From an uncultured archaeon (GTDB taxonomy: Archaea; Asgardarchaeota; Lokiarchaeia; Sigyniarchaeales; SOKP01): a stretch of DNA of 27,475 nt. The first letter of the stretch is position 1. The number at the start of each line of letters is the position of its first letter. A program made the position numbers and the translations under genes. Under the pieces are notes generated by a model, which was not told where the DNA came from, did not search any database, and saw nothing but the letters and a program-made list of their open reading frames with translations. Positions 762-21,561 of the stretch are shown here, piece after piece. The stretch is from NCBI GenBank assembly GCA_964447495.1, contig CAYUTF010000040.1, positions 1 through 27,475 on the forward strand. The letters are read 5' to 3'.

Positions 762-1214
762 ATGGTAGAATTAGACCAAATCTATGAAGTTCATAATAAT
801 CTCTTTATTGGAGCTTATTGGCCTCGATTAAATTTCAAAAAGTTTAAAGAATTAGGAATAACTGCGATTGTAAATTTGATGGAGGATGATCTCTATGATC
901 CAACGCCTGATGGATTTGAATATTTGTATCGTGGCTTCCCTGATGATTGGTATCCTCCACATAGTTATCTAAAAGAAATACTCGAATTCATTGATAGGCA
1001 TATTTGCAAAGGGAAAGTCTTGGTGCATTGTGCAATGGGTGTGAGTCGTTCAGGCGGTATTATCGTAGCATGGCTTCTAAAAGAACATCCAGATTGGACT
1101 TGGAATGATGCCATAAGTTATGTTTGGAAATCACGATTAATTTATCCTGCTATCGAAATTAGACAATCAATTTTAGATTATTTTCAAAGTAAAGAGGGCA
1201 AAAGACGAGAATAA
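762..1214 (+). CDS. Dual-specificity protein phosphatase (PTP/DSP superfamily)
   Basis: Active-site loop VLVHCAMGVSRSG (HCxxGxxRS), general-acid region FPDD, and N-terminal LFIG and GITAIVNL elements. Confidence 0.9.
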   Translation: MVELDQIYEVHNNLFIGAYWPRLNFKKFKELGITAIVNLMEDDLYDPTPDGFEYLYRGFPDDWYPPHSYLKEILEFIDRHICKGKVLVHCAMGVSRSGGIIVAWLLKEHPDWTWNDAISYVWKSRLIYPAIEIRQSILDYFQSKEGKRRE

Positions 1215-1246: not shown

Positions 1247-3538
1247 GTGATTGAAATGAGAGTATTAAATGTTTTAATCGCAGGGCACGCCCAGCATGGC
1301 AAATCCAGTCTAATTGAAGCCATTAGTGGTAAATTCCCCGATAATTTAGATTTTGAATTAAATCATGGTACAACTGTATCTTTAAAAGTAATTCAATTTC
1401 TACTACCTTCCAAACAGCTTATGATCAATTTCTTAGATTCTCCGGGTCATGCTGACTTTAAAGGAGGAATTGCGTTAGGATTAGAATTTGCAGACTTTTT
1501 AGTTATTGTGGTATCTGGATCTGAGGGGTTTCAAGCAAGAACCTATTGGCTAATAGAAAAAGCGATTGAGAAGAATCTATCTGTAATATTTGCCATTACA
1601 AAAATGGATTTACCTCATATAAACGTAGAAAAAATTCTTAAGGATATTAAAAATTATGATAATTTAAAAACCAGCTCAATAGTAAAAACCTCATCAAAAA
1701 TGCTTCTTGGGATTGATGAATTAATCGATAAAATTGCAATTCAAGTTAAAAAAAGAGAAAAATCTAATGATGATCTATCATTTATAACACTTGGATTTAA
1801 CAATAAGAGAGGGATCGGAGAACTCTTATATGTTGGTATTATTTCAGGACATATCAATAACAATCTATGGATCTCAGATAAAATAAAAATAAAAAATATA
1901 TTTTCGCTGGAAGGGGCACCTCAAAAGGAAGCTCAGGAGGGTGATATTGTTCAAATCCAATTAAATGTAATGAATAATATCGATTTGGGAACAAAATATT
2001 ATAAGGGCAAATTTATATCGCCTAAATTAATAGGAACATTGTCTGAAATAGTCGCTAGAAAAGAATTTTACATTGCGATTAATGATCCTATCAAATTTAA
2101 AATAGCAATTGAAGTTCTTGAATCGATTAAAAAAGTAATTCCTATTTTTGATTATTATTACGATAGAAATGAAATAACTATCCTTACTTTGGGCGACTTA
2201 CAGTTTAAATTTTTGAAGGAACGATTAGAAGACCTAATTGATTTTGAGATTGTAGGTTCAAAAGTTAAAGGAATTATTACCATCAACCAAGCCATGAAAG
2301 CCCATCATAAATCTGCATCTGTACGGATAGTTCCACGTGTGAAAAATAAGTTAACAATTAATCGCAATGGTGTCCAAGCTACAAAATTGTATGATGTTTT
2401 AGGCGCTTCTGTGGCTTATGATGCATTTCATTTAGATGGGTTGCATGTTGATATACATTCTGGTAAAAATGAAGAAGATATTGCTCAAGCAATTACTCAT
2501 GCTATTGAAAAAGTAAAAATCATTAAAATCGTACCTTATCAAGACGTTATCGTAAAAGTTTCGAACCACCATGAACTTTTTACGCTAATTGAAAGATATG
2601 ACATAGATATTTTATATCAGTCTAAAATCAACTCCTTTTTCCTCCAAGTTAAAAATAGTTCATTCGAATCCTTTTTTAATTCACTCATGAAACTTTCTAG
2701 TGGGCAAGCTGATATCAGTTTAATCAAATTTGATTTTGAAGAAAAAGTATTATCTATAGATCCCGGAACGCGACATTTTGGCTTTTGTTTAATTGAGCGA
2801 GGGGCTTTACCATCATTGTGGCATGTTAATTTAAAGAAAAACATTGATGATAAGAGATCTCATTCAATTTCGGAAAACCAAATTAAAGATGACTTAGATA
2901 TTTTTTTAGGTAATGATAAAGAGCTAATCACAAAAATATTCATAGGTAATGGTCCTGGATCCTCTTTCATAGCAAATGTAATGATTGAGTATTTTAACAT
3001 TACTGCGGAAGAGATTGTTGGGACTGAAGCGACATTTTCTTCTAAAAATCTCCCTTCCCCTGATATTTATTTGGTAGATGAGTTCAAAACTAGTAAGGAA
3101 GCGTTATTTCACCTTCAAAAAGGAGAAATAGTTAACGAAGTTCAAGCAAAAGGATTTGTAGACCATGCTATTGCTGCTTTGTTAATTGCTCGCCGAGGAA
3201 TCAAAGGAGAAGTCTTAACAATAGATAAAAAACCCATGACAAAATTATTTGATTACATCGTTGAAAATTATTCTGGAACCCACTCCTTCTCTAGTATTCA
3301 TAATGTGAATACTCTAGCAGATCTTAAACCTGGCATGTATTTGCGTGTCAAAGATTCTTCTAAATTAGATTCTAAATTTAAAAATGGAGACATATTCTTA
3401 TTTTCTGGTTTTGGAAGAGAATATAATATTTTGTACGCAACCACACTTACAGGAAACAAAATAATCGTAAAATTTCAAGGCCTTTCGAAGTTAAAAAAAG
3501 ACTTCTTCAATATTTTTGTTCCCGTGAAACAACGCTGA
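1247..3538 (+). CDS. EF-G/EF-2-like translational GTPase fused to a YqgF/Tex-like RNase H-fold domain
   Basis: G1 GHAQHGKSS, G2 HGTTV, G3 DSPGHADF, G4 TKMD. EF-G domain II/III/V-like motifs (EAQEGDIV; LGDLQFKFLKERL; LMKLSSGQADIS). C-terminal VLSIDPG...IFIGNG...LVDEFKTS...VDHAIAALLIARR. The start may be ATG at 1256. Confidence 0.8.
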   Translation: MIEMRVLNVLIAGHAQHGKSSLIEAISGKFPDNLDFELNHGTTVSLKVIQFLLPSKQLMINFLDSPGHADFKGGIALGLEFADFLVIVVSGSEGFQARTYWLIEKAIEKNLSVIFAITKMDLPHINVEKILKDIKNYDNLKTSSIVKTSSKMLLGIDELIDKIAIQVKKREKSNDDLSFITLGFNNKRGIGELLYVGIISGHINNNLWISDKIKIKNIFSLEGAPQKEAQEGDIVQIQLNVMNNIDLGTKYYKGKFISPKLIGTLSEIVARKEFYIAINDPIKFKIAIEVLESIKKVIPIFDYYYDRNEITILTLGDLQFKFLKERLEDLIDFEIVGSKVKGIITINQAMKAHHKSASVRIVPRVKNKLTINRNGVQATKLYDVLGASVAYDAFHLDGLHVDIHSGKNEEDIAQAITHAIEKVKIIKIVPYQDVIVKVSNHHELFTLIERYDIDILYQSKINSFFLQVKNSSFESFFNSLMKLSSGQADISLIKFDFEEKVLSIDPGTRHFGFCLIERGALPSLWHVNLKKNIDDKRSHSISENQIKDDLDIFLGNDKELITKIFIGNGPGSSFIANVMIEYFNITAEEIVGTEATFSSKNLPSPDIYLVDEFKTSKEALFHLQKGEIVNEVQAKGFVDHAIAALLIARRGIKGEVLTIDKKPMTKLFDYIVENYSGTHSFSSIHNVNTLADLKPGMYLRVKDSSKLDSKFKNGDIFLFSGFGREYNILYATTLTGNKIIVKFQGLSKLKKDFFNIFVPVKQR

Positions 3539-3645: not shown

Positions 3646-3987
3646 GTGAATTACTTGACTGATTTTGAAGAGAAAGTTCTTAATTTACTTGAAACGATAA
3701 ATAAAAAGCTTGATGCAATTCTAAACACAAATCCTTCTGAGATGGCTCATTTAAAGACCGAAAAGCATCAAGAAGGCTATGTAAAACCTTCTGCGGTTGT
3801 AGAAAAGCAGGAGGAAGAAGAAAAAGCTCTTGAGAAACCTCCTGTTGAAGGAAGAAGAGTTTGTCCTGAATGTGGAAATACAGACTTCAGAAATGAGGAA
3901 GACAAGTCGCAAATTATGTTTCAGCAAGGCGGGTTGAAGATTTTTAAAAAGCGCTACATATGTAAGAGATGCGGATTTGAGATGTAG
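3646..3987 (+). CDS. Small protein with an N-terminal helical segment and a C-terminal CxxC...CxxC zinc ribbon
   Basis: GRRVCPECGN...KKRYICKRCGFEM; GTG start preceded by a purine-rich tract. Confidence 0.75.
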   Translation: MNYLTDFEEKVLNLLETINKKLDAILNTNPSEMAHLKTEKHQEGYVKPSAVVEKQEEEEKALEKPPVEGRRVCPECGNTDFRNEEDKSQIMFQQGGLKIFKKRYICKRCGFEM

Positions 3988-4690: not shown

Positions 4691-6595
4691 TTAAAAGAAT
4701 CTAGGAAATCGGCTTTTCTCGTCAAAGTCATCATCAATTGACTCAATCTCAATAATTTCTTCTTCACTTTTTTCCTTTTTATAAGGATCTTTAAACTGCA
4801 TTTTGTAGAGATGATTATATAAGCCATTAAGTTTTACTAATTCTTTATGAGAACCTTCTTCTATAATCTTTCCTTTATCCAAGACGATTATCCGATCAGA
4901 ATTTATTATTGTTGATAATCTATGAGCAATTGAAATACTTGTCCTTCCTTTTAATAAAGTCTCTAATGCTTGTTGAATTAATAGTTCACTATAAGGATCG
5001 ATTGAAGATGTTGCTTCATCTAAAATAAGAATTGGAGGATTAGATATTAAAGCTCTTGCGAATGATATTAATTGACGCTGGCCTTCAGAAAGTTTAGCTC
5101 CCCTTTCCCCTACTATGGTATCATACCCTCTTTCTAAATTCATAATAAAGTCATGAGCACTGACATTTTTTGCCGCTTCTATAATCTCATCATCAGTCGC
5201 ATTTATCTTACCATATTTAATATTATCCTTAATACTTCCAGAAAATAGAAAGTTATCTTGAAGAACAACTCCCATCGTTCGTCGTAAACTTTTGATTTTT
5301 ATGTCTTTTAGATTAATTCCATCAATTTTAATTTCACCGATAGTTGGATCATAAAATCTACTTAAAAGTTTTATGAACGTGGTTTTACCAGCTCCAGTAT
5401 ATCCTACTAAAGCTAACCGTTCATTTTCCTTTATATTTATAGTAATATCTTCTAAAACAGGATTACCCTTTTCATAAGAAAAACCTATACCTTGATATTC
5501 GATTTTTCCTTGAATATTATTAAGTTCAACGGGGTTTCTTATTTCATTTATAGATATATCTTCCTCCAATAGAGATAATATCCTTCTACCTGCAGCTATA
5601 GAATTTTGTAGCATTGTAATGAAACTTATAAGCGAAAATAAAGGTTCAAAAAACATAAATATGTAAAATATGAATGCGATTAAAGTTCCTTGAGTTAAAG
5701 ATCCTTCTCGTATCAAGACACCCGAAGCAAGAAGAAGTAATGAGATGCCAAAAGTAATTACTAAAATGATAGTACCGGGGATAAAAGCGTTTAATTTGGC
5801 AGTCTTCATTGTTGTATTTCTCTCTAATTCAGTTGCATTATTAAACTCTTCATAATTTTCATCCTCGACTGCATATGATTGGATAATTTTCATTCCCATA
5901 ATTGATTCATCCAATATACTCGTTACAGTTGCAACTCGTTCTCTCAACTCTTTATAATACTTTCTAGCTTTTCTAAATAATAAACCCGCAATTCCAAAAA
6001 AGGCAGGCACAATCAGAAACGATACCAATGTGAGCTTTGGGCTAAGAATAATCATGAACAATAGAGAACCAAAAACTAAAAAAATATTAGGTAATGAGAC
6101 TAATAAACCAGATTGGATGAGTTGTTGGATGGTATTCACATCTCCAGTTAAATAATTAATCTTTTTTCCAGTAGTACGTTTAGGACTATCATGATAATCT
6201 AATCCTAAAGCTTGAAATTTAATAAATAATTCATACCGTAAATTATACATAGTTAAAGTAGCTAATTTCGAAATGATATAGCCTTGGATGATTCGTGTTA
6301 AAACCCCTGAAATAGTAAGGATAAAAAAAAGAGTGCCAAGGGTTAAAACAACTTCAATATCGCCTCCTGTTGCGCCTATACCTCCCCCTAATCCATCATC
6401 AACAAGAATACCAAAGATTAATGGAGTAAACCAATTAACAATCACATTTAAAATAATAATTATAATTAGGATGAACATTAAATTTTTATTACTGTGGCCA
6501 ATAAAGCTAAAAAGCTTTCTAATAACTTTTAATGAACTGGTGTTATAAAGTTCCTCTCCATTTGATGAGATCTCTCTTTTTTTCTTCCATTTCAT
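4691..6595 (-). CDS. ABC exporter, fused TMD-NBD half-transporter (multidrug/lipid exporter type), subunit B
   Basis: About 6 hydrophobic segments; Walker A GYTGAGKTT, signature LSEGQRQ, Walker B ILILDEATS, H-loop IAHRLST. Confidence 0.95.
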   Translation of the reverse strand: MKWKKKREISSNGEELYNTSSLKVIRKLFSFIGHSNKNLMFILIIIIILNVIVNWFTPLIFGILVDDGLGGGIGATGGDIEVVLTLGTLFFILTISGVLTRIIQGYIISKLATLTMYNLRYELFIKFQALGLDYHDSPKRTTGKKINYLTGDVNTIQQLIQSGLLVSLPNIFLVFGSLLFMIILSPKLTLVSFLIVPAFFGIAGLLFRKARKYYKELRERVATVTSILDESIMGMKIIQSYAVEDENYEEFNNATELERNTTMKTAKLNAFIPGTIILVITFGISLLLLASGVLIREGSLTQGTLIAFIFYIFMFFEPLFSLISFITMLQNSIAAGRRILSLLEEDISINEIRNPVELNNIQGKIEYQGIGFSYEKGNPVLEDITINIKENERLALVGYTGAGKTTFIKLLSRFYDPTIGEIKIDGINLKDIKIKSLRRTMGVVLQDNFLFSGSIKDNIKYGKINATDDEIIEAAKNVSAHDFIMNLERGYDTIVGERGAKLSEGQRQLISFARALISNPPILILDEATSSIDPYSELLIQQALETLLKGRTSISIAHRLSTIINSDRIIVLDKGKIIEEGSHKELVKLNGLYNHLYKMQFKDPYKKEKSEEEIIEIESIDDDFDEKSRFPRFF

Positions 6596-9789: not shown

Positions 9790-10296
9790 ATGTTTATAAC
9801 TCTTGGAATGGTATCTTTAGGCTTAATCTTAAATAAAATTTTAGGTATAAATCCTGATGTAGCGAAACATATTCAAGAAGAAGCAAAAAATCTTCAGGAT
9901 CGAATGCGAACGGCTCAGACGCTCGGAGACTTTCAAATGATGCGAAATTTACAGCAAGAATCGATGCAATTAACAAAGCAGATGATGACTAAGCAATTTT
10001 TCCCTCAATGTTTGAGATTAATTCTTTTTTTGATTATTTATGCTATTATTGGGTTTGTTTATGCAGAATATAATACAGGACTTCTACCTTTTAAAATATT
10101 CAATAACGATGGCTGGTTTTCAGTTTATCTTATATTTTCAATTGCATTCTCTTTACTGTATTCACTAATTAAGAGAATTTATAAATATAAGAAAGAATAT
10201 GATGATGAATGGAAGTTAAATCAAATGGGACTAATTAAATTATATACTAGTAAGATTGATATTAATGAAACTCCTTTAAAAGTTGATATATCTTAA
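9790..10296 (+). CDS. DUF106 / EMC3-TMCO1 (Oxa1 superfamily)-like membrane protein
   Basis: TM, then a Q/M-rich coiled coil (LQQESMQLTKQMMTKQFFP), then TM, LLPF, and GWFSVYLIFSIAFS (GW-x-x-x-Y motif typical of DUF106). Confidence 0.7.
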   Translation: MFITLGMVSLGLILNKILGINPDVAKHIQEEAKNLQDRMRTAQTLGDFQMMRNLQQESMQLTKQMMTKQFFPQCLRLILFLIIYAIIGFVYAEYNTGLLPFKIFNNDGWFSVYLIFSIAFSLLYSLIKRIYKYKKEYDDEWKLNQMGLIKLYTSKIDINETPLKVDIS

Positions 10297-11248: not shown

Positions 11249-12460
11249 ATGTCTGAAGAACATGGTAATCGTAAAGAGCAAGACGAATCAATAACAGACG
11301 CACTTAGCACTCTCGGTTGGATCGAAGAATCCGACGAAGAAGAGGTTCCCGTCGATGAGGAGGAAAATCTCTCAGAGCAGTTGAATTTCTTTATTGAACA
11401 AAATAAAGAATTAAATAATGAAATCCTCAACTTGAAAAAACAACTTGATACCCTTGTTAGTGAAAATGAAAATAATATTCATGAAAAAGAGAAACTCCAA
11501 TCACTAACAGAAAAAAATAATGATACTATTGAAAATCTCCTTCAAAGTATTGTACAAAAAGATGATTTAGTTAAAGATCTCGAGCAAGAAATTGAAATTT
11601 TCTCACAAAAAGCTCAGGATGGCGAATTACAAATTCAAAATATTTCTCAACTAGAAAAGTCGATTACTACTAAAAATCAAGAGAATGAAGACTTAAGTTT
11701 ACAAATTCAAGAAAAAGAGACGATGATTCAAAGTCAATTAAAGGAGATTGAAAAACTTAATGAAGTTATAGAAAATTTAAAAGTAAACCAAGATGCAAAT
11801 AAAGAAATACTTGATCAACTCCAGCAAAAAGAAGAAAAGGTAAAAGAGTTATTAACTCAAATAGAATATCTTGAAAAAGATACCATTCAAAAATCAAAAT
11901 TCGAAAAATTACAGCTATTAGTTGATAAAAAAGATGAGATCTTAACAGAAAAGGAAAAAAACATATTTGAATTGCAAAATACTAATGAAAAATCCAATCA
12001 AAAAATTAAAGAATTACAATCCCAATTAGAAACATTTAGTCTAATGAAAAAAGATATCAATAAAAAAGAAGATCGAATAAATGAACTAGTTTTAGAAATA
12101 GAAAAACTCACTCAAAAAAATAACACCAATGAAGAATTTCTCAAACGAATGGAAGAGAAATTAGAAGAATCGCAACAAAAGTCAGGAAATATAACGGGAA
12201 AGTTTGAATTAGAATTGGCTAATCTCCGTAATATTAATCAAGATAAAAGCAATGAAATTCAAGAATTAGTTGCTTCACAGAAAAAATTAAAAGATAAAAT
12301 ATATGAAGCAGAACAAATCGAAGACAGAATCCTAACAGAAATGCAAAGAATTAAAGATGATAAGCTGAAATTAGATTCCGAAATCGAGAAAAAGGATGAG
12401 GAAATAATAGATTTAAAAAAGAAAATTAAACTCTTAAGAAGAGATCTCAAAAAATCTTAA
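11249..12460 (+). CDS. Long coiled-coil protein with an acidic N-terminal head
   Basis: About 360 aa of E/K/Q/L-rich heptad sequence lacking Pro after the head; recurring I-x-x-K-[DE]-x-x-I-x-[DE]-L units. Confidence 0.8.
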   Translation: MSEEHGNRKEQDESITDALSTLGWIEESDEEEVPVDEEENLSEQLNFFIEQNKELNNEILNLKKQLDTLVSENENNIHEKEKLQSLTEKNNDTIENLLQSIVQKDDLVKDLEQEIEIFSQKAQDGELQIQNISQLEKSITTKNQENEDLSLQIQEKETMIQSQLKEIEKLNEVIENLKVNQDANKEILDQLQQKEEKVKELLTQIEYLEKDTIQKSKFEKLQLLVDKKDEILTEKEKNIFELQNTNEKSNQKIKELQSQLETFSLMKKDINKKEDRINELVLEIEKLTQKNNTNEEFLKRMEEKLEESQQKSGNITGKFELELANLRNINQDKSNEIQELVASQKKLKDKIYEAEQIEDRILTEMQRIKDDKLKLDSEIEKKDEEIIDLKKKIKLLRRDLKKS

Positions 12461-12534: not shown

Positions 12535-13548
12535 TTACTTCTCTCTCCACTCTAATCCGCATTCACCACAGCGGTATTTTTTACCATAAAGCCTAGGATA
12601 GTCCATTATGATATTTCCCTTGTCAATACTTTCGTGGATGAGAGCCTTGTTTTCGTTGCCACATTGTGGACATTTTCTTCTACCTTCACCCTTCTCTATT
12701 GTTAAAAGATCATCTTTAGATCCCGGGATACCCGGTGCGGCACCCGAAGCACTTGCAACTTTTACCTCGTTAATATCTGCTTTAATATCTTCAGGAGTCA
12801 CTTCTTTTACTTTAGTTTTTAATTCTAGCTGAATAGATGCTGCAGCTATATCCGCTTCGGTTTCTGGCTCTAAGCTAGATTCTGCTCTTAATTGGACTGC
12901 ATCTGATTCTTTATAATACTCTCCTTTTTCTAAAGCACTTAAAAAGTCCGCATCGTCTCCCTCCTCAAATATAACTTCATTTTGCGATCCAGCTCGTTCG
13001 CTATCGATTTGACGTGCCCACTGGCCTGATTTAACTTTTTCTTTTACATTACACGCATTTCCTTGCCATACATAGACTTTATTTCCTAGATCTAACACAA
13101 AACAATCTTCAGTGTCTAATTCATCTTTATTATAGGGTACTTGCACCATTTTCATAGCATTTATACCCTCAAACTCTTCAGAAGATACTCTATATAATAC
13201 ATTTACGTGTTCAGAAAATTGAGCGTAATCTCCTGTAACTACATCTTTTAGCATTGTTTTTGCGACATTTTTCTCCACGACTTTCATTGCTCCCATAGTA
13301 TTTATTAATTTTAAAAAATCTGGCGTTTCTTGGTTTTGATCAACAGTAATGATTTTAGCAGCACCTCCTCTTTGTTGATCAAGTGTACGTGCTTGAGCTG
13401 CTCCTGCAGTTTTTTCATCGACACTACACTTATTTCCGATCCAAACATAGATTGTTTTATCGTCATCAACAAGATATACATCTCCAGTAGAAAAAATGGG
13501 ATTATTAATCTCATGCAGTTGGCCTTGATCGACCATAAAAATTTTCAT
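12535..13548 (-). CDS. Two-domain gelsolin-family actin regulator with a C-terminal zinc ribbon
   Basis: Domain 1 FSTGDVYLVD..IYVWIG..CSVDEKTAG; linker MLKDV; domain 2 LDTEDCFVLDLG.KVYVWQG..CNVKEK; C-terminal CPQC...CGEC. Confidence 0.9.
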   Translation of the reverse strand: MKIFMVDQGQLHEINNPIFSTGDVYLVDDDKTIYVWIGNKCSVDEKTAGAAQARTLDQQRGGAAKIITVDQNQETPDFLKLINTMGAMKVVEKNVAKTMLKDVVTGDYAQFSEHVNVLYRVSSEEFEGINAMKMVQVPYNKDELDTEDCFVLDLGNKVYVWQGNACNVKEKVKSGQWARQIDSERAGSQNEVIFEEGDDADFLSALEKGEYYKESDAVQLRAESSLEPETEADIAAASIQLELKTKVKEVTPEDIKADINEVKVASASGAAPGIPGSKDDLLTIEKGEGRRKCPQCGNENKALIHESIDKGNIIMDYPRLYGKKYRCGECGLEWREK

Positions 13549-15107: not shown

Positions 15108-15707
15108 ATGAGCCAAGAAAATAATCTTAATAATGAATCCCAAGAGAGTAAAAGAGACAATCTTTTAATAAAAGGTTGGAAGGATTTTATGGCGGAAATT
15201 ACCGAAGGTTATAAAAAATTCCAAACTTTTTATGAAGAACAAGCTAAGAAAAATCAAGAATCATGGAATGAAAACAAGGACCGAATAGTCAAATTTTTTA
15301 ATGATTCAAAGAGGAATTGGGATAGCATGTTGGAAGATTGGGATTCTGAGTTAGAAAAAATGCAATTAGAAAACAAAGAACAATGGATTAATAATAAAGA
15401 GAAAATAGATCAATTTTTTCAAGATTCGAAGAAAAATTGGGATACAAAATTAACAGAATGGACAACAGAAATTAAAAGAAGACAATCTGAAACGACAGCT
15501 CAATGGGAGGCACGAAAGCAAAAAGTAAGTGAAGATATCAAAACATGGCAAGAAAAGACAAAAAATAACTGGGAAAAAGGGTTAAAAGCTTGGCGCAGAG
15601 AAATGATCAAGGGTTCTTATATGTTTCTTGTATATATGATTCCAATCTTAGTTGTCTTAATAGTAATTGTATGGTTATTAAATTGGGCTATGAATGCCTT
15701 TTCATAA
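15108..15707 (+). CDS. Trp-periodic amphipathic helical repeat protein with a C-terminal transmembrane anchor
   Basis: Tandem 40-aa repeats (WNENKDRIVKFFNDSKRNWD / WINNKEKIDQFFQDSKKNWD); hydrophobic C-terminus MFLVYMIPILVVLIVIVWLL. Confidence 0.75.
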   Translation: MSQENNLNNESQESKRDNLLIKGWKDFMAEITEGYKKFQTFYEEQAKKNQESWNENKDRIVKFFNDSKRNWDSMLEDWDSELEKMQLENKEQWINNKEKIDQFFQDSKKNWDTKLTEWTTEIKRRQSETTAQWEARKQKVSEDIKTWQEKTKNNWEKGLKAWRREMIKGSYMFLVYMIPILVVLIVIVWLLNWAMNAFS

Positions 15708-16555: not shown

Positions 16556-17422
16556 ATGAAAGATAAGGAAATGATTAATTGCCCAGTTTGTGCCACTAAA
16601 TTTATTCCTAGAATATTTTATCCTGAGGAAGTTATTTTCTCTACTTCTGATGGGAAAAAGCTATCAGGATTCAGCGGGTATATCGGTAGCAAGGGGGTAA
16701 AACCACAAGAAGTAATCTTAAGCACATGGAAAACATATTGTCCAAATTGTAATTACATACTTAATTTTGTAAAGGAAATTGTGAGAAAAGAGAAACTACA
16801 CATTCAAAAAACATCTCCTAAGGATATATCAAGTAAATATAATAGTTATTATTTCGGGTTTCCATTCGGTGATTATACGCAATACTTAAAAGAGATAACA
16901 AAAAAGATGGAAGAAGGAATCGAGTCAATTTTAAAAGAATTAGATATAGAAACCTGGGAAAATCTTTACATAATAGACGATAGTTTTAAATTCTTGGTAA
17001 AATTCTATGCCAGTTTAGAAAATTACTGTGATACTAAGCTCGGGATGAAGGATGAAAAGGATATCATTGCTAAAGTGAGAAAATTAAAACTTTCTGAGGA
17101 ACTTGAAAATAATCTTTTAGACTTAAATATTATTAAGGATAAACTAATTACAGGCGATTATGAGCTTTCTTCAGGAGAAGAATCTAAAATTCGAACTGTC
17201 TTAGTGGAGTTTGTTCTTTTTTTACTTAAGAAACATCTCGAATCATTAATTAATACAAAACAATTACTTGAGGGTTATGAATTTCTTAATCGCAGTGATC
17301 TTGAATCAGAAATAAAAAGTTATATCAGCCAATATCTTTATTCTACTTTTAATAGTGATCCTAAATCTAAAAAACACATTAATGCTTTTATAGAAAATAT
17401 GTTTGAAGAAGCACACACTTAA
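16556..17422 (+). CDS. Hypothetical protein: N-terminal zinc ribbon plus a helical C-terminal domain
   Basis: CPVC ... CPNC pair at the N-terminus; 288-aa ORF with ATG start. Confidence 0.7.
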   Translation: MKDKEMINCPVCATKFIPRIFYPEEVIFSTSDGKKLSGFSGYIGSKGVKPQEVILSTWKTYCPNCNYILNFVKEIVRKEKLHIQKTSPKDISSKYNSYYFGFPFGDYTQYLKEITKKMEEGIESILKELDIETWENLYIIDDSFKFLVKFYASLENYCDTKLGMKDEKDIIAKVRKLKLSEELENNLLDLNIIKDKLITGDYELSSGEESKIRTVLVEFVLFLLKKHLESLINTKQLLEGYEFLNRSDLESEIKSYISQYLYSTFNSDPKSKKHINAFIENMFEEAHT

Positions 17423-17444: not shown

Positions 17445-19490
17445 TCAACTCTGAAATAAACCTAAATTAGGATCTAGAAATTGATTTTGACACATAGGAC
17501 ATGAATTGTATTTTGATAGCCAATCCGCTACACATAAATAATGGTAGGTACTTCCACAAAAAGGGCACGTTATAACCTGATTTTTTGTAAAATCAATGTT
17601 TTTATGGCACACCGTGCATTGGACATTAGATGCAGAGACTCCTGCTCTCATTTTAGCTTTATTAGATAAGATTTCGTCTAATTTTGCTTTTTCTACTTGA
17701 TACAACCCCAAACTAGAGGTTAATTGGTTTATCTTTGCTTCAATTTCTCCAATCCGTTCCCTCAACTCATCTTCTGTTAAACGTTCAGCAAGAAATGCAG
17801 ATAGTGCGAAATTAATAGGAAGGCCCTCAAAATTCTCAGCTTGCTTTGTAATTTCGGTTATTTCTGCAAATAAAATGGATTCCTGATCAATTAATTCCTT
17901 AAAGCTTTTGAATATTTTATTAACTAAAACAGATAGTAAGAATGTAAGCTGTTGTTTCTTTCTATTAAAGTTCCTCTCCCAGTATCGAATGATATTATAC
18001 ATATCAACATTACTATCTTTATACTTATCAAGTTCGATATAAACTTCCTCTTTAATTATCTCTATTTGCTTCTTGTAATTTGTTAAAATATCTTTAACTT
18101 TCCTTAATTGGGGTAATTCTTCTTTAAGGATTAAAGAAGTCTCATCTTCATAAGAACTAATGATTTTATTTACTTCAGAAATCTTCTTATCCACAATATT
18201 TCTAATTTCTAATCTTAAGCCCTCATCTTTTATACTTATTAAATAATTCGAATACTCTTCTTTTCTACGGAAGATATCAGAGCTTAAACTTGACAACGTC
18301 TTCTTTATAGAAGCAGTGATATTTTCATACGGTTTTAAAAATTTTTCCAAATTCAAAAGCCAAGTATCAAATTCATCAATAATAGATGATAAATAATCAA
18401 TTTTGGTGTAGAACGAATTTATAATCTTTACAAATTTATTCGTTTCTTGCTCATTGAGATTATTAATCATACCCTGAAATGTTTTATCTAATCCATTAAA
18501 ATACAGAGTTATAATTTTAGGAAGTAAATCTGAAAATTTCTCTTTCAATAGTACATTCGTATCGAATGTTCCTTTTTGTTGAGTTTCATCAATATCAAAT
18601 TCTTTATCAAATCTAATTATGTCATTTAGAATTTTCTCAAATTTATCTGTGATATATGATGAAATAACAGGACGAATCTCCTGTTTTAGGGATTTCAGAA
18701 CTTCTTTTCGTTCTAATACATTAATGAATTCTTCTTCCTTCTCGTATTCTTCGAAAAATCCATTTTTATACAGAAAATAAACTAATTCTTCATGTATACT
18801 CAACTTTTTTGATTCCTTACTTAATAAAAATTGATATAACTCATCAAAATGAAAGGAGTATACCTTTTCTTTTCGAGATCTTGTTTTTTTTGACTCCGCT
18901 GCTTCATTTAAACTGATTATAAATACATTTAACTCCTTAATTTCTTCCCATATTAATAATTCATTTGGTATAGGGTTCAATTTATAATTTAGGTTTTTAA
19001 CTTTATTTGCTCGAACCCATATCCTTATCTCATTCTCATATTCTTTTTCAATCTTTACGATATTGGGCGTTAAATTGGAAAGGATATCGTTAATATCGTT
19101 TTTAATTTTTTTTGCTAATACTATAAAATTATCAAGAAAAGTGTTATGTTTCAAATTTCGCTTAACAGTTGCTGCATTCGAAATAAGATTAGCTAAATTT
19201 TGCGAAATTAAGTTTAATTCTTCTTTCACATTTAACTTAAGTTCATAATATTTACCATTGGGAATGTTTAACATATATTTATGAATAAATGATATAATCT
19301 CAAGTACGTAATTTGAATATTCATCAAGAATCTGATACTGGAATTTACTTTCAAGGTAATCATTTAATTCAACTGAATTTTCCTCATCAGATTTAAGATT
19401 TGAGAGTTCTGTTTTTAGCTTAAGAATATCTGATTTAGTATAGCCCCTTATTTCTTTAGTCTCATCAAACGTATTGTCAAAAAAAAACAA
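17445..19490 (-). CDS. Helical/coiled-coil protein with a C-terminal C4HC3 RING finger (putative E3 ligase)
   Basis: C-terminus CTVC-x13-CPFC-x4-HYLC-VADWL-x5-CPMC (RING Trp and the Pro of CPxC present); long helical body; TTG start. Confidence 0.8.
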   Translation of the reverse strand: MFFFDNTFDETKEIRGYTKSDILKLKTELSNLKSDEENSVELNDYLESKFQYQILDEYSNYVLEIISFIHKYMLNIPNGKYYELKLNVKEELNLISQNLANLISNAATVKRNLKHNTFLDNFIVLAKKIKNDINDILSNLTPNIVKIEKEYENEIRIWVRANKVKNLNYKLNPIPNELLIWEEIKELNVFIISLNEAAESKKTRSRKEKVYSFHFDELYQFLLSKESKKLSIHEELVYFLYKNGFFEEYEKEEEFINVLERKEVLKSLKQEIRPVISSYITDKFEKILNDIIRFDKEFDIDETQQKGTFDTNVLLKEKFSDLLPKIITLYFNGLDKTFQGMINNLNEQETNKFVKIINSFYTKIDYLSSIIDEFDTWLLNLEKFLKPYENITASIKKTLSSLSSDIFRRKEEYSNYLISIKDEGLRLEIRNIVDKKISEVNKIISSYEDETSLILKEELPQLRKVKDILTNYKKQIEIIKEEVYIELDKYKDSNVDMYNIIRYWERNFNRKKQQLTFLLSVLVNKIFKSFKELIDQESILFAEITEITKQAENFEGLPINFALSAFLAERLTEDELRERIGEIEAKINQLTSSLGLYQVEKAKLDEILSNKAKMRAGVSASNVQCTVCHKNIDFTKNQVITCPFCGSTYHYLCVADWLSKYNSCPMCQNQFLDPNLGLFQS

Positions 19491-20254: not shown

Positions 20255-20712
20255 TTTTCTGTACCTTTCAAAAATTAATAAATTGTATTATTTTAATTCT
20301 TAATAGTTATAAGAAAATAAGAATTAATTAAAATTTTTGTTTTAAAATATAAAACCTTACAAATTGTGGAAATAATTAACAAGCATTTATTTCAAGTGAT
20401 TTTGAAACCTTTAAAAAACAGTTTTAGTATCTGATAATATTAACTTTTTATCATTCCGTTCTTGTTTAGATAAAAATACTTACGATCTTAATATAAGATT
20501 AAGAATTACAACAATTTCGCACTTAAGTAATATTTTTTTATTAAAAATTAATTAATGCAAAAAATTGGTATCATAATCCCATCACTATTACTTTTCATAT
20601 CATAATTATTATTGTGATCTCTAAAATAACATTATTATTCACTAATTAATTCGCTTATAACTTACTAAGTATGATCAGAAAATTGATGGGATCATATTCA
20701 TAGGGGATAATA

Positions 20713-20835
20713 AAAATTCATTCAAATTTTTTTCCTTCCCCTTTAAGTCATAAAAAAAACAATATTAAAGACCATTTCCTCAAAATTGATATTTGAATTA
20801 TTGTGATGATACTAAAATTCATTCATATTTTTTTC
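20713..20835. repeat. 22-bp direct repeat pair in the psmB-histone intergenic region
   Basis: AAAATTCATTCAAATTTTTTTC (20713-20734) and AAAATTCATTCATATTTTTTTC (20814-20835): 1 mismatch, 101 bp apart. Confidence 0.7.
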
Positions 20836-20940
20836 AATGATCACCTACCAAACTATCATGACTCATTAACCTTTAATCCAAATAATAATTTTTTGTCGTA
20901 ATTTTTGATACAATTAACTTCTCATCTTCTTCTCAATTGC

Positions 20941-20955
20941 CAAAACATTTAAATA
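20941..20955 (+). promoter_or_regulatory. Candidate BRE/TATA box for the histone gene
   Basis: CAAAACA-TTTAAATA about 100 bp upstream of the ATG. The AT-rich background makes this weak evidence. Confidence 0.3.
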
Positions 20956-21040
20956 ACTCTTCGGATATATAACTATCTAAGAAACTTTAAAAATAACTAT
21001 TAAAAAAATTAAAAACTACAATTTTAAAAATTTTATAAGT

Positions 21041-21045
21041 GGAGG
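21041..21045 (+). promoter_or_regulatory. Shine-Dalgarno site of the histone gene
   Basis: GGAGG 8 nt upstream of ATG 21054. Confidence 0.7.
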
Positions 21046-21053
21046 AATAAAAA

Positions 21054-21272
21054 ATGGCTAAAAAGAAACATAGCTTTGCATGGTCACCAATTAGAAGACT
21101 CATGAAACAACAAGGTGCAAGCATCGTAGCCAGAAATGCTGTAGATTTATTAATTGATCATCTTGAAAAGACAGCAACTGGCCTTACCGAACAAGCTCGA
21201 GCCTTTACCATGCATGCTAACAGAAAAAAGATTACTAAGAATGATTTAGTATTAGCAATTAAGTACAAATAA
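21054..21272 (+). CDS. Archaeal histone (HMf-like histone fold)
   Basis: 72 aa: SPIRRLMKQQGA.IVARNA ... HANRKKITKNDL, which aligns with HMf API.RIIK.AGA.RVS..A ... HAGRKTIKAEDI. Confidence 0.92.
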   Translation: MAKKKHSFAWSPIRRLMKQQGASIVARNAVDLLIDHLEKTATGLTEQARAFTMHANRKKITKNDLVLAIKYK

Positions 21273-21301
21273 ACTGAGAATAATAACTCCAATAGTCAAA
21301 C

Positions 21302-21318
21302 TTTTTTTTTCTTTTTTT
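21302..21318 (+). terminator. Archaeal poly-T terminator after the histone gene
   Basis: T9-C-T7 tract 30 nt after the stop codon. Confidence 0.6.
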
Positions 21319-21561
21319 ATAAATTTTGTTTTTAAAAAACTTGAGATATATATTGTATTGACTAATTAAATCTAATAATAAGAAATAATCACTCATAGCT
21401 TTGAAAAGCAAGTTATAGCATTTCATTTCATATATTAATTGATAATTAATCCCTTGATATATTAATTAAAAATTTAAAAGAAAATAATTAATAACCAAAA
21501 TGTATATTTTATTTCCGGACTTAATATTATTATAGAACTATTAACTTTTTGTTGATGATAT

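Follow-up and report, generated by a model that had tools for sequence, protein, structure and literature searches.

An EF-G-like GTPase joined to a YqgF/RuvX-type domain in Asgard archaea and Methanopyrus: a candidate ribosome-directed nuclease

Introduction

Few proteins have been studied as thoroughly as the translational GTPases. EF-G and archaeal EF-2 (aEF-2) consist of a G domain followed by domains II, III, IV and V; LepA has no domain IV at all. Both LepA and BipA, which are bacterial or organellar, have a compact G domain without a G' insert, and their own C-terminal domains, attached after domain V, reach into the ribosome. YqgF, of the YqgF/RuvX nuclease type, occurs in bacteria as a protein of its own, about 140 aa long. 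Trans-acting nucleases targeted to the ribosome include RelE, Cue2/SmrB/NONU-1, Nob1 with eIF5B, and the contact-dependent inhibition (CDI) toxins that use EF-Tu, and the ribosome-directed nucleases that we know of are separate proteins. Here we describe a gene in a 27,475-nt stretch of DNA from an uncultured archaeon of the Lokiarchaeia (contig CAYUTF010000040.1, assembly GCA_964447495.1; the whole stretch is referred to as the window), whose 760-residue product very probably combines an EF-G-superfamily body (G, II, III, a short IV and V), a YqgF/RuvX domain and a beta-rich tail in one polypeptide.

The protein and its homologs, referred to below as the family, share features with each of these systems. 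They have the domain order of EF-G and aEF-2 and keep the histidine of the PGH motif, and both factors are among the best Foldseek matches of the predicted structure, but the family has no G' insert, its domain IV of about 90 residues has no tip loops, and it carries a C-terminal nuclease domain, which EF-Gs do not; the score of the window protein was 60.5 bits against the NCBIfam model for EF-G (cut-off 583) and 24.6 bits against that for aEF-2 (cut-off 738). LepA gave the best NCBIfam score (79.7 bits), the best match among PDB sequences and the top Foldseek match, although its cut-off of 533.9 bits was far from reached and the profile alignment made with hhalign ended at domain III. As in LepA and BipA, the G domain is compact and domain V is followed by an additional C-terminal module; unlike them, the family is archaeal, and this module is a predicted nuclease in place of the C-terminal domains that LepA and BipA have there. 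The three-carboxylate signature of YqgF/RuvX is also present, in a domain that is part of an archaeal protein and differs from its bacterial counterpart by an insert of 20–45 residues before strand 5 and an invariant histidine beside the helix Asp. As in the ribosome-targeted nucleases named above, RNA cleavage would be brought to a defined ribosomal site, which some of them achieve with the help of a translational GTPase; they divide nuclease and GTPase between separate proteins and use unrelated nuclease folds, whereas here both lie in one chain and the predicted nuclease is of YqgF type.

In the literature we found no description of an EF-G-like/YqgF fusion, for which supplementary orthologous-group tables might hold an entry. 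The first-pass annotation of this DNA had likewise known of no translational GTPase (trGTPase) with this fusion, and none appears in the main text of the 2015 trGTPase survey (PMC4342817). There, aEF2 is the sole archaeal entry of the EF2 family, the terms 'nuclease', 'RNase H' and 'Methanopyrus' do not occur, and the common theme of the EF2 family is a conformational change of the ribosome that displaces another molecule, not RNA catalysis (main text of PMC4342817). RuvX, YqgF and EF-G are all absent from the main text of an Asgard census preprint (10.1101/2020.10.19.343400). Both modules are known, and their combination in a single chain is not; within the EF-G superfamily, the family forms a small subfamily that had not been described before.

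Results

Gene and alignments

The longest open reading frame (ORF) at the locus, 1247..3538 on the forward strand, begins with GTG and encodes 763 aa. The ATG at 1256 is more likely to be the start codon, since both the database record of the protein (P0002, 760 aa) and the alignment of homologs begin there, and for this reason the start at 1247, used in the first-pass annotation, was replaced; residues are numbered throughout with the Met at 1256 as residue 1. The motifs quoted in that annotation were all found in the translation of 1247..3538. In public records, proteins of the P0002 family are named 'GTP-binding protein'. Alignments were built from hand-picked subsets, first of 30 and later of 36 sequences, out of about 100 homologs, and the 36 aligned members span 30–77% identity to the window protein. 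Compared with seven distant members, identity was 45.5% in the G domain, 43.2% in the YqgF domain and 21–29% in domains II–V; the alignment shows the strongest constraint on the two predicted enzymatic ends of the protein.

G domain

A Pfam scan of the window protein gave the translational G domain GTP_EFTU (PF00009) as the only confident family, with a match at residues 5–164 of 88.3 bits against a cut-off of 26.5 (E 6.4e-25). The G1–G5 motifs were invariant in 36/36 aligned members, as was the PGH histidine (His65, Table 1), which in translational GTPases is positioned by the sarcin-ricin loop of the ribosome; the compact G domain without a G' insert, proposed on first reading, agrees with these results. 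Most members have T-K-x-D as their G4 motif, whereas N-K-M-D is found in P0128 from Methanopyrus. At P-loop position 13 (1292–1294), Gln was present in 27, His in one and Ser in one of the 36 rows, all of them in the Loki clade, and the canonical Asp was retained in all seven non-Loki rows. Searches of PDB sequences matched G domains only, the best being those of LepA, IF2 and SelB. Taken together, the motif and profile analyses show what is, by prediction, an intact translational-GTPase active site.

EF-G-like body

A full-length AlphaFold model was obtained from the alignment of 36 sequences, with a mean pLDDT of 76.5 and a pTM of 0.63, and was confident over residues 1–425 (pLDDT 80–92). 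When this model was compared with the PDB using Foldseek, 1475 matches were obtained at E <= 0.001. Among the matches listed, the top-ranked entries all belonged to the EF-G superfamily (E 3e-25 to 1e-20), with LepA at the top (3.3e-25), archaeal EF-2 at 4.5e-24 (TM-score 0.44, normalised by query), and EF-G, EF-G2, mitochondrial EF-G, TetM and Snu114 as further top entries; the alignments were of 601–774 columns and spanned the whole targets. EF-Tu, IF2 and SelB were all missing from the top ranks of the matches listed.

Using hhalign, the 36-sequence family profile matched LepA (5 sequences) with a probability of 99.8 and an E value of 3.6e-29 over family positions 2–334, and EF-G (5 sequences) with a probability of 98.9 and an E value of 3.3e-17 over 480 columns, joining family positions 2–489 to EF-G positions 9–669 of 692. 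The EF-G alignment kept the hallmark segments of EF-G domains III, IV and V in register and agreed with the secondary structure of the model. With Foldseek matches that all belong to the EF-G superfamily and a profile alignment to EF-G that runs through domain V, the order I–V including a short domain IV, as first proposed for this protein, is supported.

For the individual domains the evidence differed in strength. The domain II segment was covered by the hhalign matches to both LepA and EF-G, and in the Methanopyrus member P0128 it matched Pfam EF-G_D2 with 31.4 bits against a cut-off of 27. A profile of the middle region (residues 170–498) matched only RF3 in the PDB, in 5/5 matches (E 0.022–0.046), and Pfam RF3_C matched 3/30 members; in hhalign the middle region alone gave E values of 1.3e-3 for EF-G and 7e-3 for LepA, with low probabilities. 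These searches give modest, independent sequence support to the predicted domains II and III. The short domain IV was in register with that of EF-G at modest confidence, the tip-loop segment being missing; as LepA has no such domain, an elongated domain IV would be a variable feature within the EF-G superfamily. For domain V, Pfam EFG_C gave a weak match in P0128 (residues 426–485, E 0.013), the sole member matched. A complex prediction of residues 1–337 with the C-terminal 45 residues of aP1, the stalk protein of the same genome, gave a score of 0.00 and a mark of 0.32, which counts neither way.

Nuclease domain and tail

Pfam RuvX matched 11/30 members at E <= 0.1. In a scan of nine proteins, eight matched RuvX at the same threshold and three of these reached the cut-off, P0122 (30.7), P0123 (31.1) and P0124 (29.2); the match in distant members spanned profile positions 2–128 of 134. 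In agreement with this, a 19-sequence profile of the C-terminal half aligned by hhalign to seven bacterial RuvX sequences with a probability of 96.0 and an E value of 4.2e-9, over 120 columns and RuvX positions 2–129 of 139. The matches listed, which for the 30 members showed 25 of 27 families, did not include Tex_YqgF, and neither did those of the nine scanned proteins (E <= 0.1). The YqgF/Tex pattern of the first-pass annotation can therefore be kept for its RuvX/YqgF part, which both Pfam and hhalign recovered, and not for Tex.

The YqgF signature consists of three carboxylates, one on strand 1, one where strand 5 ends and a single one on helix 3, and separates YqgF from RuvC, in which a Glu follows strand 4 and helix 3 bears two acidic residues (as described in part of PMC9601230). 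In Deinococcus radiodurans YqgF, alanine at the strand-1 Asp impaired RNase activity, and alanine at the strand-5 Glu or the helix-3 Asp abolished it (same part of PMC9601230). In the family, the three carboxylates of the YqgF signature are present as Asp502, Glu609 and Asp636, and all three are invariant in 36/36 members, in line with the earlier statement that acidic residues are retained at the catalytic positions. The RuvC pattern fails: acidic residues are not conserved in the strand-4 segment, and the helix contributes just one Asp, directly before a His. This His637 is specific to the family, since the position after the helix Asp varies among six bacterial RuvX sequences. Taken together, the alignments show a domain of predicted YqgF/RuvX type with the catalytic triad retained.

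In the AlphaFold model the nuclease domain has the order beta-beta-beta-alpha-beta-alpha-beta-alpha, which fits the five strands and three helices of an RNase H-like fold, with pLDDT <50 over residues 585–598 and 608–651. Searching the C-terminal half in the ESM Atlas gave no usable match, and its profile found nothing credible among PDB sequences, where the best match (E 0.54) was a kinase. The tail that follows, residues 656–760, forms five strands in the model (pLDDT 62–86) and is kept in 19/19 aligned homologs; it had no match in Pfam, the ESM Atlas or PDB sequences (best E 0.29, with a tail profile), so that the SH3/KOW-like identity given to it in the first-pass annotation is tentative.

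The fusion and its family

Among 120 rows listed in the homolog search, 94 were family members (E <= 1.5e-117, the window's own record included), most of them of 744–786 aa and with 96–100% coverage; the remaining 26 rows matched the G domain only. A phmmer search, run exhaustively over 1.84 billion cluster representatives, returned ten proteins at E <= 1e-30, of which six were full-length (P0079 with 60% identity, and P0122–P0125 and P0128 with 31–36%) and four were fragments; all matches beyond these ten covered the G domain only. Using the C-terminal profile, 47 metagenome loci were found. Of these, 28 extended 1560 nt or more upstream of the match, and the frame continued unbroken for at least 480 residues upstream in 27/28; in the shorter loci it was open up to the contig edge (19/19). 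In addition, the junction between domain V and the nuclease domain was bridged without an indel by contigs of 3/4 independent DNA runs. An assembly chimera is ruled out by the homologs, the unbroken metagenome frames and the junction-bridging contigs, so the fusion is real and is not unique to this assembly.

When the C-terminal profile was searched against 5.8 billion proteins of 134–496 aa, it found only 14 fragments of the same family, and no standalone form or other fusion in that size range. A generic G-domain motif scan of contigs yielded 80 bacterial loci of IF2/LepA type and no additional family members; the reference RuvX, LepA, EF-G and BipA genes used here were drawn from the bacterial genomes behind those loci. 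The members come from Promethearchaeota/Lokiarchaeia, Hermodarchaeota, 'Asgardarchaeia', Asgardarchaeum, Odinarchaeota, Baldrarchaeia (a partial record) and Methanopyrus sp. (two RefSeq records), so that the family is, as far as these sequence searches reach, confined to Asgard lineages and Methanopyrus.

At the one exception among these 28 metagenome loci (L192, 2869–3453), only the last 183 residues were present (61% identity), in an unrelated context, and the more than 2.8 kb upstream resembled neither the remainder of the gene nor the genes that usually flank it; this looks like a truncated remnant. Records of 156–196 aa named 'hypothetical protein' may be similar remnants or fragments at contig ends.

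A tree was inferred from the G domain and domain II (29 rows, 279 columns), with 11 chosen family rows; IF2, SelB, RF3 and Tet were left out, RF3 because none was found in the five bacterial genomes used. The family formed one separate clade (100/99), which was set apart from the EF1A-type outgroup (100/98). It met LepA and a group of BipA plus EF-G/aEF-2 in a trichotomy that the tree did not resolve. The Methanopyrus protein P0128 branched first within the family and, with its N-K-M-D G4 motif and its EF-G_D2 match above the cut-off, is the most canonical member by sequence. Scores against the NCBIfam models for LepA, IF-2, SelB, EF-G, Tet, BipA, RF3 and aEF-2 were 24–80 bits, against cut-offs of 467–1425, and because they are so far below these cut-offs the protein belongs to no named orthologous group.

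Paralogs of aEF-2 in Asgard archaea have reportedly been discussed in published work. That the protein is such a paralog was rejected on the basis of the NCBIfam scores, the separate clade and the ordinary aEF-2 that the host genome also encodes. A further contig of the host (C19) carries, near 43527 on the forward strand, an ORF of 492 aa that appears to encode a divergent translational-GTPase paralog, with an E value of 1.3e-6 to the G domain of the window protein and a very long branch beside EF1A in the tree.

Distribution and locus

Presence of the gene was determined by searching the C-terminal 269 residues against 400 genomes of the phylum. It was found in 36/400 Asgard genomes and in 11 of the 90 high-quality ones; in its own taxonomic family 33/134 genomes carried it (the window's genome not counted) and in its own genus 10/41, and two single genomes in other families also had the gene. 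In the Loki family the locus was syntenic in 17/17 loci examined, among housekeeping-type genes. Five congeners with 99–100% complete genomes had no match, and tblastn found no trace of the gene in any of the five; at the syntenic site the upstream phosphatase gene and a DUF1667 gene were kept in 5/5, and the zinc-ribbon gene lay within 0.5–0.75 kb in 4/5. This clean presence/absence polymorphism at a fixed site points most readily to vertical inheritance and repeated losses, which the remnant L192 also fits. The gene is optional and accessory, and not part of the core machinery.

Discussion

On these results we propose that the GTP-bound protein would dock in the factor-binding site of the ribosome, as its relatives do, where the invariant PGH histidine would be activated. 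Docking would place the nuclease domain in the intersubunit space on the A-site side, since it is attached after domain V, where the C-terminal domains of LepA and BipA sit. There it would cleave RNA, either mRNA, tRNA or rRNA, and GTP hydrolysis would then free the factor. The role would most likely be conditional, for example the clearing or inactivation of particular ribosomes under stress, stalling or infection; such a role in quality control, stress or conflict is favoured over a housekeeping one because the gene is dispensable within the genus. That the YqgF family can act in a ribosomal context is indicated by E. coli YqgF, whose processing of pre-16S rRNA was confined to the 70S ribosome (reported in part of PMC9601230). 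We regard the full proposal, GTP-dependent docking on the ribosome with RNA cleavage and a conditional role, as about evenly balanced between right and wrong. The narrower statement, that the protein may be a GTP-gated endonuclease which uses the universal factor-binding site to cut mRNA, tRNA or rRNA inside the ribosome, is put forward tentatively, as somewhat more doubtful than not; such an enzyme would be the first translational GTPase with its own nuclease.

Several points weigh against this proposal. Ribosome binding and the GTPase and nuclease activities are predicted. In the window protein itself the Pfam RuvX match is sub-threshold (13.1 bits, E 0.13, cut-off 29.2), the RuvX model found nothing at E <= 1 in the six-frame translation of the host genome, and the nuclease domain is poorly modelled, with a pLDDT of 30–36 over residues 608–651. 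Neither domain IV nor domain V reaches significance by its own sequence, and their assignment comes mainly from the model and the extended alignment. The P-loop Asp of translational GTPases is reported to bind the catalytic monovalent cation, and its replacement in the Loki clade, window protein included, may alter the catalytic mechanism. Gene context lends no support either: no neighbouring gene is shared between the two distant loci (L114 and L115), or between either of them and the Loki locus. Finally, having an EF-G-like body is no guarantee that a protein acts on the ribosome, since Snu114, which is EF-G-like and works in the spliceosome, is among the Foldseek matches.

Four other explanations have to be weighed against a conditional ribosome-directed nuclease. 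The first-pass annotation had offered rRNA maturation, quality control of stalled ribosomes or mRNA, and ribosome decay as roles. Quality control falls within the conditional role favoured here, and essential rRNA maturation fits poorly with presence in 10/41 genomes of the genus and absence from 5/5 congeners. As a dedicated maturation factor, the protein would use its body to proof-read a nearly mature subunit or a 70S-like particle, and its YqgF domain would trim an end of the pre-rRNA. The YqgF/RuvX homology is in keeping with this; LepA and BipA, which share the trichotomy with the family, are tied to ribosome biogenesis, and Nob1 cleavage in eukaryotes is stimulated by a GTPase. The 70S requirement of the E. 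coli enzyme and the digestion of both 16S and 23S rRNA by D. radiodurans YqgF point in the same direction (part of PMC9601230). However, a gene carried by 36/400, 11/90 or 10/41 genomes, with an empty syntenic site in 5/5 complete congeners, is dispensable within the genus, which makes an essential step in maturation improbable unless a redundant nuclease exists, and we consider this role rather unlikely. The same patchy presence would suit a conflict or defence module, in which a ribosome-docked nuclease shuts down translation upon virus infection, in the manner of abortive infection, or acts as a toxin. The mechanism would then be the one proposed here and the biological role would differ. 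A truncated remnant in a different context also accords with this role, and GTPases and nucleases are frequently combined in immune systems. Against it, PADLOC 2.0 gave 0 families for the window protein and three neighbours, and only G-domain-level matches to LeoA/LeoBC for the distant members P0128 and P0095; on viral contigs 0/136 pattern matches were confirmed as the family; the gene occupies one fixed syntenic locus (17/17) in housekeeping-type surroundings and not a variable island; and no antitoxin or immunity partner co-varies with it, as the flanking phosphatase and zinc-ribbon genes persist where it is absent. A defence role is thus unlikely, too.

The remaining two explanations concern the substrate and the activity of the nuclease domain. 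A DNA-directed, RuvX-like nuclease acting on Holliday junctions or branched DNA, under the control of a GTPase switch that is no longer ribosomal, seems very improbable to us. One partial member is named 'Holliday junction resolvase RuvX' by NCBI, and Snu114 provides a precedent for an EF-G-like protein off the ribosome; junction cleavage has been reported for some YqgF homologs (cited in part of PMC9601230), although D. radiodurans YqgF has no junction-resolving activity and prefers RNA (same source and part). In the family itself, the three carboxylates follow the YqgF and not the RuvC pattern, the histidine typical of translational GTPases is invariant, and no DNA-repair neighbours recur. 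Alternatively, the YqgF-like domain might merely bind RNA, as in Tex/Spt6, and the protein would be a non-cleaving factor of the ribosome or of another ribonucleoprotein (RNP). YqgF-like domains without catalysis do exist, and a sub-threshold RuvX match in the window protein together with a poorly modelled domain would be expected to leave room for one; yet three carboxylates and the adjacent His are invariant in 36/36 members at 30–77% identity, and Tex_YqgF is not among the matches listed, all of which makes a non-cleaving protein decidedly unlikely.

If the protein is indeed such a GTP-gated endonuclease, some Asgard archaea and Methanopyrus would have, in a single protein, the means to destroy selected ribosomes or to reset them. 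A fusion with an apparently active YqgF domain would newly couple GTP-dependent recognition of the ribosome to RNA cleavage, and it is found in the archaeal lineages closest to eukaryotes, in which pathways of ribosome quality control are of evolutionary interest. Should the target not be the ribosome, the family would be a second EF-G-like switch recruited elsewhere, after Snu114. The proposal is directly testable, as the Methanopyrus ortholog should be thermostable and His65, Asp502, Glu609 and Asp636 are sites for mutants.

Neighbouring genes and other features of the window

Table 1. Coordinates of the gene, its domains and key codons, and its two flanking genes in the window
Feature	Coordinates	Strand	Remarks
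Whole gene	1256..3538	+	760 codons and TGA stop; ATG start
Translational-type G domain	1256..1759	+	Residues 1–168; without G' insert; Pfam GTP_EFTU
His65 codon, D-x-P-G-H motif	1448..1450	+	His in 36/36 members
Predicted domain II beta-barrel	1769..2029	+	Residues 172–258; all-beta at 175–254 in model
Predicted domain III	2048..2266	+	Residues 265–337; beta-alpha-beta-beta-alpha-beta (269–337, model)
Predicted short domain IV	2267..2539	+	Residues 338–428; without the long tip loops of EF-G; pLDDT 79–92
Predicted domain V	2540..2725	+	Residues 429–490; beta-alpha-beta-beta-alpha-beta (431–489); pLDDT 56–77
Predicted YqgF/RuvX-type RNase H-fold domain	2738..3220	+	Residues 495–655; by hhalign, and by Pfam RuvX in distant members
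Asp502 codon, strand-1 carboxylate	2759..2761	+	Asp in 36/36; aligned to RuvX strand-1 Asp
Variable insert in nuclease domain	2993–3058	+	Before strand 5; 20–45 residues across family
Asp608 and Glu609 codons, end of strand 5	3077..3082	+	Glu in 36/36; Asp in 33/36, Asn in 3/36; aligned to RuvX D-E
Asp636 and His637 codons, last catalytic helix	3161..3166	+	Both in 36/36; Asp aligned to RuvX helix Asp
C-terminal tail	3221..3535	+	Residues 656–760; one helix, then small beta-rich module
Upstream neighbour, dual-specificity phosphatase	762..1214	+	Pfam DSPc, E 1.4e-16
Downstream neighbour, small zinc-ribbon protein	3646..3987	+	Weak zinc-ribbon Pfam matches

The phosphatase gene was immediately upstream in 11/17 Loki-family loci and the zinc-ribbon gene immediately downstream in 12/17. 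An operon-level link of the GTPase–nuclease gene to either of them was rejected, given that these neighbours recur incompletely and persist where it is absent. At the distant locus L114, a gene for an ARMT1-like damage-control phosphatase (5451–6356) adjoins the gene or lies near it, and at L115 a calcineurin-like phosphoesterase gene (2325–2864) is one gene away. The occurrence of phosphatases of different families near the gene in three lineages may be a coincidence, since the Loki one stays where the gene is absent.

Elsewhere in the window, a 1.3-kb segment (20255–21561) is free, on both strands, of ORFs of at least 90 aa, and no tRNA and no Rfam match at the gathering thresholds was found in it, and three ORFs on the forward strand (11249–12460, 403 aa; 15108–15707, 199 aa; 16556–17422, 288 aa) gave no Pfam match at E <= 1e-4. 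Three other genes encode eukaryote-like proteins of kinds typical of Asgard genomes: an EMC3/TMCO1-like membrane protein (9790–10296, forward strand; E 1.8e-6), a protein of 681 aa with a C-terminal RING finger (17445–19490, reverse strand; zf-RING_2, E 1.5e-6) and a gelsolin-repeat protein (12535–13548, reverse strand; Pfam Gelsolin, E 1.3e-27).

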